In this document: positions 35,696-37,919 of the stretch, one piece after another
Position numbering within the stretch: the stretch's first letter is position 1
Layout of the letters: every line of letters begins with the position of its first letter
Assembly (NCBI RefSeq): GCF_024521635.1
Contig: NW_026250419.1
Span: forward strand, 186,001-250,000
DNA: 64,000 nucleotides
Source: Tricharina praecox
Lineage: Eukaryota
Reading direction: 5' to 3'
Position numbers and translations under genes: made by a program
Notes under the pieces: generated by a model
Told to the model about the DNA's origin: nothing
What the model saw: the letters and a program-made list of their open reading frames with translations, nothing else
The model's database searches: none

Positions 35696-37919
35696 CTAAG
35701 GAGAGACATCGCCATTGGTCAGAACTTCTCCCTCCGGGTGCAAAAACCTCTCCAGATTACTATTACAAGACCCATCAGTATAAATTTTATATCGCCGAGA
35801 AAGTGGTGGATACACATACCCAGAAGCTGCCGCCACGAATCCGAGGTACGGCTTGCTGGGGTTCAACACCCTGCTCAGGTACTCAGGGTGGAACTGCACA
35901 CCGACAAAGTAAGGGTGCTCCTTGAGCTCGACAATCTCCATACGCTCACCGGTGTCGTCCTTTCCAACAAAGTTCAAACCAGCCTCGGTGAGCCGGTCGA
36001 CGTACTCGGGGTTGACCTCGTATCTGTGGCGGTGGCGCTCGAGAATCTGACCAGCTTCTGAGTAGAGCTGGCGGATTTTAGACCATTCCGATCCAGGTTG
36101 GAAGACGGTAGGGCGAAGTCCAAGACGCATGGTTCCTCCAAGGTGAGTTTTCGATCCCTCGGGCATGAAGATAATGACAGGGTTGGGGGTCTCAGCCGAG
36201 ATCTCAACGGAGTGTGCGTCTGGGTTTAAGTCAGCTATGCCACAACCACCACCGCCGCCAAATTGGATGTATACCCTTCATGCCGCAAACATTCCGGGCA
36301 TACTCGACGACTGCAACCTGCATTCCCAGGCAAATTCCCAAGTACGGAATCTTGTGCTCCCTGGCCCACTTGGCAGCCGCCACCATTCCCTCAGTCCCCC
36401 GAGCGCCGAATCCTCCAGGGATCAGGATACCGTCAGCAGTGCACACATCGTGCCATGCCTTGTGGAATTTCGCGGGATCACTGGCATTAACAGCGGGCTC
36501 CAAAGCCTCGGCCTCAACCCACACGAGGTTCAGCTTGCGATTGCAGTGCATTGCGGAGTGCTCCAGACTCTTCACGGTGGAGAGGTAAGAGTCGTGAAGA
36601 TCGGTGTACTTTCCGACAAGGGCAATAGTCACGGTGTCGTACAAGCGGTCCTGGGCAAGGGTAAGAGTTCTCCACTCTTTCCAGAGGGCCTTGCCCTTCT
36701 TGATGTAGGCAGCGGGAATTTCGATCTTGTCGAGTGACATGGTGGTGGTGAGAAGCTCGACCAACTTCTGATCATCCAGGAGGATGGGCACATGGTAGGT
36801 CGAGTTTACGTCGTGAACAGCGATAACCTGCTCGTTGTTGACATCGCAGAAGAGTGCAATCTTCTTAATGGTTGCCGGTTGGAGCGGTTGCGGGCAACGG
36901 CAGGCAATCTACCCTCAAACGTCAGAACCCATACTTGCTGTCGCACTCGGTAGGAGAGTTTTACCAAATCGGGCGACAGACCGGCAGATCTAACATCTCT
37001 GATGGCCGCCTGGGTGGGCTTCGTCTTCTGCTCACCACTAATGACCGGCACCAGTGACACATGGATCTGCATAAAGTTGTCCTTGCCCGCGCGCCTTCTG
37101 AGCTGGCGTAGAGCCTCGATGAACGGAGCGGACTCGATGTCTCCAACGGTTCCTCCGAGCTCGATGATGCAGACGTCCGGCTTCTCGCCTGTCTCGTCGA
37201 CAGGAACCTGTGCGACACGCTCTATCCAATCCTGGATGGCGTCTGTCAGGTGAGGAACCACCTGCACCGTCTTTCCAAGATAATCGCCACGCCTCTGTAA
37301 TGCCCCCCATACTGTCAACCAAAAGTTCCCCTTCCACCCATCGGCAAGATCAAGGGTAGACGTGCCTCCCGCTCGATCACCTGCTGGTACACCTTCCCGG
37401 TCGTGATGTTGTTCTCTCGGGTCAAGGTGATGTTAAGGTATCTCTCGTAGTTCCCGAGGTCGAGATCGACTTCTCCTCCGTCGCTGAGAACGAAACATTC
37501 GCCGTGCCTTTACCAATAGTACGATCAGCCCTCTATTTCGCGGCCAGAGTGTCGCACAACACAAAGGGTAATAGTACTCAGTGGGGGCCATGGTTCCGGC
37601 ATCGACGTTCATGTACGGGTCGATCTTGATTGAAGTGACGTGGGAAGGTCAGCCGGAGGCACGGCGCACAGAAAACTCGGAGGAGGACATATCTTAAGAC
37701 CCTTCGTCTTAAGCAGCAGGCCGGTGGAGGAGGCTATACGAAAGCAGTGAATTAGCAGCACATTCACCCTTCTGCAAGAGGTCCAGACAAAAAACTTACC
37801 GATCACGCCCTTTCCAATACCGCTGATAACACCTGAAGCCCCCACCCGGTAATCAGGAATGCCCCATATTTCAAGATCCAAAGAGTAAACCGACCTCCAG
37901 ACACCAAAACATACTTCAT
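35696..37919 (-). CDS. URA7: CTP synthase, 8 introns including one AT-AC and one GC-AG
   Basis: [78 protein letters not shown] and QFHPE motifs. Confidence 0.97.

Follow-up and report, generated by a model that had tools for sequence, protein, structure and literature searches.

The CTP synthase gene of Tricharina praecox contains, as its third intron, a 53-nucleotide (nt) segment that starts with AT and finishes with AC, and that is excised at exactly these ends in vivo to leave an intact product. The gene, which is of the URA7 type, was studied in a 64,000-nt stretch of the NCBI RefSeq assembly GCF_024521635.1 (contig NW_026250419.1, positions 186,001 to 250,000 of the forward strand), hereafter the window, from whose first letter all coordinates below are counted. 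Its coding region lies on the minus strand at 35696..37919, with the ATG at 37919-37917 and a stop codon ending at 35696, and it comprises nine exons that encode 576 amino acids (aa) when spliced. Intron 3 (37640..37692, minus strand, 60% G+C) is inserted in phase 0 after codon 33. The evidence set out below leads us to regard it, with high confidence, as an old, constitutive and conserved AT-AC intron that is removed by the major spliceosome and whose persistence reflects a frozen state.

Exon 3 (37693..37733, minus strand, 41 nt) ends GGT CTT AAG at 37693, and exon 4 (37578..37639, minus strand, 62 nt) begins GTC ACT TCA ATC AAG ATC GAC CCG at 37639. Between them the minus strand opens at 37692 with the 5' splice site ATATGT (37687..37692, read directly, preceded by the exonic AAG) and closes with GGCTGACCTTCCCAC at the 3' end by 37640, where the 3' splice site CAC (37640..37642) is placed by both the sequence and the transcript joint. 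A scan for CTRAY located the branch-site motif GCTGAC at 37648..37653 on the same strand; the A at 37649, at a distance of 10 nt from the intron's last letter, is the putative branch point.

Of five runs that matched the gene, the transcript contigs of four were aligned to it: X1 (study P1), X2 (P2), X3, and X4 (P3). X1 and X2 each supplied one contig, of 1947 and 2268 letters, that differs from the gene at 0 letters and from which all eight introns are gone. Both contigs contain the joint 37639|37693, which skips 53 nt and is positionally unambiguous (0 letters); the plus-strand ends of the skipped segment, GT..AT, correspond to AT..AC in the orientation of the gene. The contig of X4, a soil run labelled as metatranscriptomic RNA-Seq, joins 37506|37577 and stops at 37639, leaving 10 unaligned letters, CTTAAGACCC, that are identical to plus-strand 37693-37702 and hence to the end of exon 3; the X3 contig spans only 36483-36634, short of the intron 3 junction. 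The junction is seen in three studies, at 37639/37693, the interval that the first-pass annotation had singled out for a check at the level of RNA.

We read X1 and X2 as RNA because the intron-less form is deep (607.4 in X1 and 381.5 in X2), whereas the sole intron-containing fragment among those listed, at the boundary of intron 8 and its exon in X1, has a depth of 7.85, a pattern that fits RNA and not a DNA retrocopy. Depth over 37616-37699 was 224.2 in X1 and 140.8 in X2, as expected from the exonic letters only. The zero shared letters at 37639|37693 also make a template-switch artefact unlikely. Among the contigs aligned from X1 and X2, none retains intron 3; being contigs and not raw reads, they drop rare forms and hence give no measure of splicing efficiency. 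The X2 contig continues for 276 further letters upstream of 38100, which would correspond to a 5' leader of more than ~450 nt or to run-on into a neighbouring transcript.

Removal of all eight introns yields an intact 576-aa CTP synthase that is colinear with its orthologues and has the same N-terminus as they do. A total of 508 of its residues are identical to P0002 (556 aa, named Sphaerosporella brunnea), CTP synthase matches are also present in PDB, and the translation of exon 4 aligns to residues 34-44 of the yeast CTP synthase 7rkh (E = 4e-5). The largest exon is 100% identical to the public model P0001, 'putative CTP synthase 1 [Tricharina praecox]' (Pezizomycetes, Pezizales), which carries the Pfam domains PF06418 (synthetase) and PF00117 (glutamine amidotransferase). 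That removal of the 53-nt AT-AC segment restores a conserved CTP synthase, as first proposed from the letters of the window, is thus borne out by the transcript joint and by the 43 of 120 orthologue models in which the junction is uninterrupted. The predicted consequence of retention holds as well, since translation through intron 3 meets an in-frame TGA at 37609..37611 (minus strand).

The other seven introns, all on the minus strand, were placed by the same transcript contigs: intron 1 (37833..37894, 62 nt), intron 2 (37734..37799, 66 nt), intron 4 (37508..37577, 70 nt, supported by X4 too), intron 6 (36909..36964, 56 nt), intron 7 (36220..36274, 55 nt) and intron 8 (35760..35819, 60 nt) have GT-AG ends, and intron 5 (37295..37365, 71 nt) has GC-AG ends, with the joint 37294|37366 (plus-strand ends CT..GC) present in X1 and X2. 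Intron 5 is the second non-canonical intron of the gene; its 5' end reads GCACGT, and no CTRAY branch motif was found in it. Exons 1-4 measure 25, 33, 41 and 62 nt (37578-37919), micro-exons that by themselves make prediction hard.

The exactness of the junction was also assessed against other ways of arriving at a reading frame. When frame-keeping pairs among 16 dinucleotide types were compared, only AT at 37692 with AC at 37640 gave the conserved protein at the junction. The first-pass annotation had held that no GT/GC-AG pair nearby keeps the frame, which is slightly too strong: GT 37662..AG 37625 (38 nt) and GC 37665..AG 37625 (41 nt) are both frame-keeping and stop-free. Neither pair restores the protein and neither is used by any contig; with either as the intron, VTSIK would be lost and ICPPPSFLC(A) gained. 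A twin intron (stwintron), in which GT-AG introns are nested, was likewise rejected. The deletion can be placed in one way only (0 ambiguous letters), which rules out nested canonical splicing, since the outer excision would still run from A 37692 to C 37640. Adenosine-to-inosine editing of A+1 was discarded as an explanation, given that the terminal C cannot become G in that way, and an RNA fold joining the intron ends was discarded on its stability (z = +1.04; of 200 shuffled sequences, 173 were equally or more stable).

Conservation of the AT-AC intron and its traces in public models

To place the intron among other loci, a degenerate pattern for 14 residues of the protein was compared with metagenome contigs, which returned at least 116 loci, nearly all of prokaryote type, and the upstream in-frame translation was read for every one of those listed; with a more stringent pattern, genome contigs and viral contigs each gave 0 loci. 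Two fungal loci among the matches listed, L008 and L041, are interrupted by AT-AC introns exactly at AAG|..|GTC. The L008 intron is 56 nt long, with the 5' end ATATGT, the branch motif GGCTGAC and the 3' end CAC; that of L041 is 52 nt long, with ATAAGT, GGCTGAC and TAC. Both introns precede a 62-nt exon 4 (52/62 letters identical to the window in L008 and 49/62 in L041), after which comes a GT-AG intron in the same place as in the window. The window, L008 and L041 have unlike intron sequences except at the splice and branch signals. Comparison of orthologues for intron position and termini finds AT-AC at the same codon boundary in both loci, which, counted with the window, extends DNA-level conservation to three lineages.

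The site is uninterrupted in 114 of the at least 116 listed loci, three of them fungal-like (L013, L049 and L088), and a GT-AG intron at the AAG|GTC boundary occurs in none of the at least 116. L049 and L088 are of unassigned lineage and weigh only weakly on the question of origin. The CTP synthase gene of L049 (1-1442) is fungal-like and rich in introns; one of them follows GKGVIG, several small exons lie downstream, and no intron stands at the K|V boundary.

Public protein models extend the comparison. The best 120 of 1136 orthologue models (E <= 1e-40) were classified at the junction. Twenty-two were uninformative fragments; among the 98 informative models, the junction was intact in 43 and garbled in 22, while 15 models start inside exon 4 and 18 start near exon 5. 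An essential, universal enzyme is thus wrongly modelled at the intron 3 site, by truncation or garbling, in over half of the informative Pezizomycotina entries examined (55/98). In models that extend into the intron, its first codon is translated as I in 6/6 cases (ATH; V would be expected from a GT start), and its last codon as H (12) or Y (2) in 14/15, where Q, K, E or a stop would be expected from an intron ending in AG. The models with such traces come from five classes of Pezizomycotina, namely Pezizomycetes (Rhizina), Dothideomycetes, Lecanoromycetes, Geoglossomycetes and Leotiomycetes. This distribution points to an AT-AC intron older than the split of Pezizomycetes from the other classes, a conservation across classes that the first-pass annotation had not foreseen.

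The remaining public entries of note concern the gene itself and one relative. P0001 matches the last 534 residues of the 576-aa product exactly. Its start codon is the first ATG in exon 4, so that it lacks residues 1-42, which include the nucleotide-binding glycine-rich loop. It splices the GC-AG intron 5 correctly yet fails at the AT-AC intron 3, in keeping with the earlier expectation that gene predictors would mis-model this gene. Separately, P0034, a 540-aa ENA metagenome protein on a 46.7-kb contig, derives from an uninterrupted open reading frame that begins within intron 2 and covers the entire protein, the junction being intact, which suggests a relative that lost intron 3 and all downstream introns.

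The practical value of these observations lies in fungal annotation. Gene finders limited to GT/GC-AG lose the first exons of the essential CTP synthase gene; permitting AT-AC at this one conserved boundary would mend many models, and the locus offers a ready test case for fungal gene finders.

Splice signals and probable dependence on the major spliceosome

U12-type introns have the 5' site consensus (A/G)TATCCTT (ATATCCTT) and the branch consensus TCCTTAAC close to the 3' end. Neither the 5' motif ATATCCTT nor the branch motif TCCTTAAC is present in intron 3 or in the introns of L008 and L041. The 5' ends ATATGTCC (window), ATATGTAC (L008) and ATAAGTTT (L041) do not fit the U12 consensus, and the last 25 nt of the three introns hold GGCTGACC and no TCCTTAAC-like word. 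The donor AAG|ATATGT of intron 3, by contrast, is the fungal GTATGT consensus in every position except the A at +1. Together with GCTGAC at the branch, these letters uphold the original reading of both sites as U2-type and not U12-type. Among the seven other introns of the gene, a full GTAAGT or GTATGT is found in 2, CTGAC in 2, and CTGAC or CTGAT in 5; with so few strong signals in the other introns, intron 3 has the best 5' and branch signals of the gene, its termini apart.

The literature bears on which machinery could act. According to Larue 2023, convincing minor introns are missing from both Ascomycota and Basidiomycota, and most minor small nuclear RNAs (snRNAs) have been lost; the absence of minor introns or minor snRNAs in Ascomycota is also reported in Lopez 2008 and Bartschat 2010; the three agree with the view, put forward in the first-pass annotation as established knowledge, that filamentous ascomycetes generally lack the minor spliceosome. 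An Rfam scan of the 64-kb window returned only Fungi_U3, a result that speaks for the window alone and not for the rest of the genome. With no minor spliceosome in Ascomycota and with U2-type signals, intron 3 would belong to AT-AC type II, the class whose criterion, in Sheth 2006 (PMC1557818), is a 5' site that fits the U2-type consensus save for A at +1. It is a strong inference, based on these signals and on the Ascomycota surveys, that removal of intron 3 depends on the major spliceosome.

Such a dependence has precedent in the chemistry of the termini. According to Sheth 2006 (PMC1557818), a G1>A change is rescued by a last-G>C change in yeast and human, 'although less efficiently', so that the compensation between the two ends in the major spliceosome, on which the initial interpretation relied, is stated there for both organisms.

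Elsewhere in the window, a 442-aa open frame at 34200-35528 (minus strand) begins ~170 nt downstream of the CTP synthase stop, and a fungal U3 snoRNA gene lies at 60537-60767 (minus strand; Rfam RF01846, 131.9 bits, full-length match).

Proposed mechanism, persistence and origin of the AT-AC termini

The putative mechanism for removal of intron 3 has U1, and later U6, recognizing AAG|ATATGT, which matches the consensus everywhere but at +1, while U2 would pair with GCTGAC and bulge the A located 10 nt upstream of the 3' end. At the second step, A(+1) and the last C would make the non-Watson-Crick contact that is normally made by G+1 and the last G, the same pairing through which G1>A and last-G>C mutations in yeast and human introns rescue one another. 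Single reversions, to GT-AC or to AT-AG, would be expected to splice poorly, and a return to GT-AG would take two simultaneous changes. Turunen 2012 describes the AT-AG and GT-AC combinations as disfavoured and the intermediates as poorly spliced. Because the return to GT-AG would need two changes at once, conservation can be accounted for without invoking function, and it appears best explained by a frozen state.

Several points weigh against the reading of intron 3 as an old, conserved intron of the major spliceosome. X1 and X2 are labelled 'RNA?', and their RNA nature is deduced from their content. The letters of intron 3 are known from the assembly only, the termini being backed indirectly by the orthologous loci and by the truncated public model. 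Conservation at the level of DNA comprises two loci beyond the window, both of them metagenome contigs. The protein traces fix codons only (I = ATH, H/Y = CAY/TAY) and are no proof of the final C, and the 1/15 misfit among them, P0025 (named Coniocarpon cinnabarinum), has Q before VSSIK at residues ~40-56. Intron presence is not readable from the models in the species of the 43/120 that are intact at the junction. The mis-modelling, moreover, is not wholly attributable to AT-AC ends, as micro-exons contribute and 18 models start near exon 5, past the next canonical intron. Finally, the evidence that this host is without U11, U12, U4atac and U6atac comes from surveys of other Ascomycota. As to P0025 itself, its exon 3 is read in a shifted frame, and the gene may have other termini or another structure at the site.

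The alternative that fares best concerns origin. Intron 3 may have begun as a U12-type AT-AC intron and, when Dikarya lost the minor spliceosome, have persisted through conversion of its 5' and branch sites to U2 type with its termini kept. Stepwise U12-to-U2 conversion is documented (Turunen 2012), AT-AC II introns have been called a possible relic class (Sheth 2006, PMC1557818), and ATAT at +1 to +4 is kept in the window and in L008. These arguments are offset by phase 0, which is atypical for minor introns (Larue 2023), by the three fungal-like loci L013, L049 and L088 and the 111 remaining listed loci that have no intron at the site, and by a literature search that found no paper linking CTPS2 with U12-type introns; it is simpler to suppose that an ordinary intron underwent a double substitution. 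We therefore consider a U12 origin doubtful. Equally doubtful is its bolder form, in which intron 3 would be a living fossil of the minor spliceosome: a U12-type intron of the CTP synthase gene in ancestral fungi would have passed to the major spliceosome as U11, U12, U4atac and U6atac disappeared from Dikarya, and its A...C ends would have been locked through the history of Pezizomycotina since both single-step reversions are unfit. Were this true, U12-to-U2 conversion could be studied in the CTP synthase gene as a natural experiment with a date.

A second proposal, raised in the first-pass annotation as slow splicing that could throttle the enzyme, would have the AT-AC ends kept by selection: a slow second step would make removal of intron 3 rate-limiting or regulated, and retained transcripts would stop at the TGA at 37609-37611 and be degraded. 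Retention does yield that premature stop, the rescue of G1>A by last-G>C is the 'less efficient' one in yeast and human (Sheth 2006, PMC1557818), and the enzyme in whose gene the intron is conserved across classes is essential and under feedback control. Conservation is explained equally well, however, if reversion takes two substitutions at once (Turunen 2012), the region has no unusual fold by the shuffling analysis given above (z = +1.04), and the intron sequences vary among the three loci outside the splice and branch signals. We judge a selected throttle to be unlikely.

Far less credible is a U12-dependent intron in a fungus that keeps a cryptic minor spliceosome. One subtype of U12 introns typically has AT-AC ends, intron 3 shares its opening ATAT with the U12 5' motif, and the spacing of 10 nt between branch A and 3' end is inside the U12 range. 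Positions +5 to +8, on the other hand, read GTCC against the CCTT of the U12 consensus, ATAAGT in L041 means that ATAT itself is not conserved, and the window, L008 and L041 all have the GCTGAC branch motif and no TCCTTAAC-like word; the Ascomycota surveys cited above (Larue 2023, Lopez 2008 and Bartschat 2010) report no minor introns or snRNAs.

Least probable of all is an artefact, either an assembly error at both termini of a true GT..AG intron or template switching by reverse transcriptase that looks like splicing. X1 and X2 consist of contigs, and the intron letters come from the assembly. An assembly error, however, would take two independent base errors, two independent metagenome assemblies have AT..AC at the same site, the I...H/Y traces recur in the protein models of many further assemblies, prediction would have picked up a GT-AG intron whereas the public model is truncated just behind intron 3, and a junction with 0 shared letters leaves no repeat for template switching, is found in three studies and restores a conserved protein.

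For the reading that we prefer, an old AT-AC intron handled by the major spliceosome, the interest for splicing evolution is moderate. A natural AT-AC intron with high transcript contig depth, in a phylum reported to lack the minor spliceosome, would provide a clean in vivo system for the tolerance of A(+1) and a last C, and it allows one to ask whether A/C pairs persist by selection or by mutational trapping.

Comparison with known non-canonical introns

AT-AC type II introns are U2-dependent and very rare, with 24 found among ~610,000 introns of five species, and xylanase genes of filamentous fungi have been hypothesized to hold some of them (Sheth 2006, PMC1557818). RNA-seq-based work on filamentous fungi puts AT-AC at 0.03% of SnowyOwl introns (PMC4084796), and rare AT-AC introns were detected by RNA-seq in Fusarium graminearum (PMC3577648). 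These fungal introns come from the same class of organism as intron 3 and rest on the same kind of evidence, although neither paper names the genes in its text. In Arabidopsis, a protein of the DROL1/TXNL4B subfamily is reported to be required for AT-AC introns (preprint 10.1101/2020.10.19.345900). Our literature search found no description of an AT-AC intron in a fungal CTP synthase; the Fusarium gene list that supplements PMC3577648 may name the gene. We conclude that intron 3 is a previously undescribed, conserved member of a known rare class, and not a new kind of intron.

Its closest natural counterparts are the AT-AC II introns of human SCN4A and SCN5A (Wu & Krainer 1997, summarised in PMC1557818), which have the same AT-AC ends and a U2-type 5' site and are conserved in distant orthologues. 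The need for the major snRNAs was shown experimentally for SCN4A/SCN5A, whereas for intron 3 it is deduced; intron 3 differs further in residing in a CTP synthase gene, in being a short 53-nt fungal intron, and in belonging to a host without a minor spliceosome according to the literature. The engineered yeast and human introns with G1>A and last-G>C (cited in PMC1557818) involve the same pair of changes on a GTATGT-type site, the major spliceosome and the interaction of the first and last nucleotides. Those double mutants are laboratory-made and spliced with reduced efficiency, while intron 3 is natural, fixed and conserved, and its spliced form was assembled in three studies.

Two other classes share single features with intron 3. 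U12-type AT-AC introns have the terminal dinucleotides and the short distance from branch A to 3' end in common with it, whereas intron 3 lacks the U12 5' and branch motifs, is in phase 0 and occurs in a phylum reported to be without the minor spliceosome. In U2-type GC-AG introns, one of which is found in the same gene (37295-37365), a non-canonical end is likewise accompanied by strong signals, and Sheth 2006 (PMC1557818) describes that end as offset by the strength of the others. GC-AG introns depart from the canonical form at one position and are handled by most predictors, in contrast to the AT-AC intron 3, which is missing from the public model of a gene whose GC-AG intron is in place.

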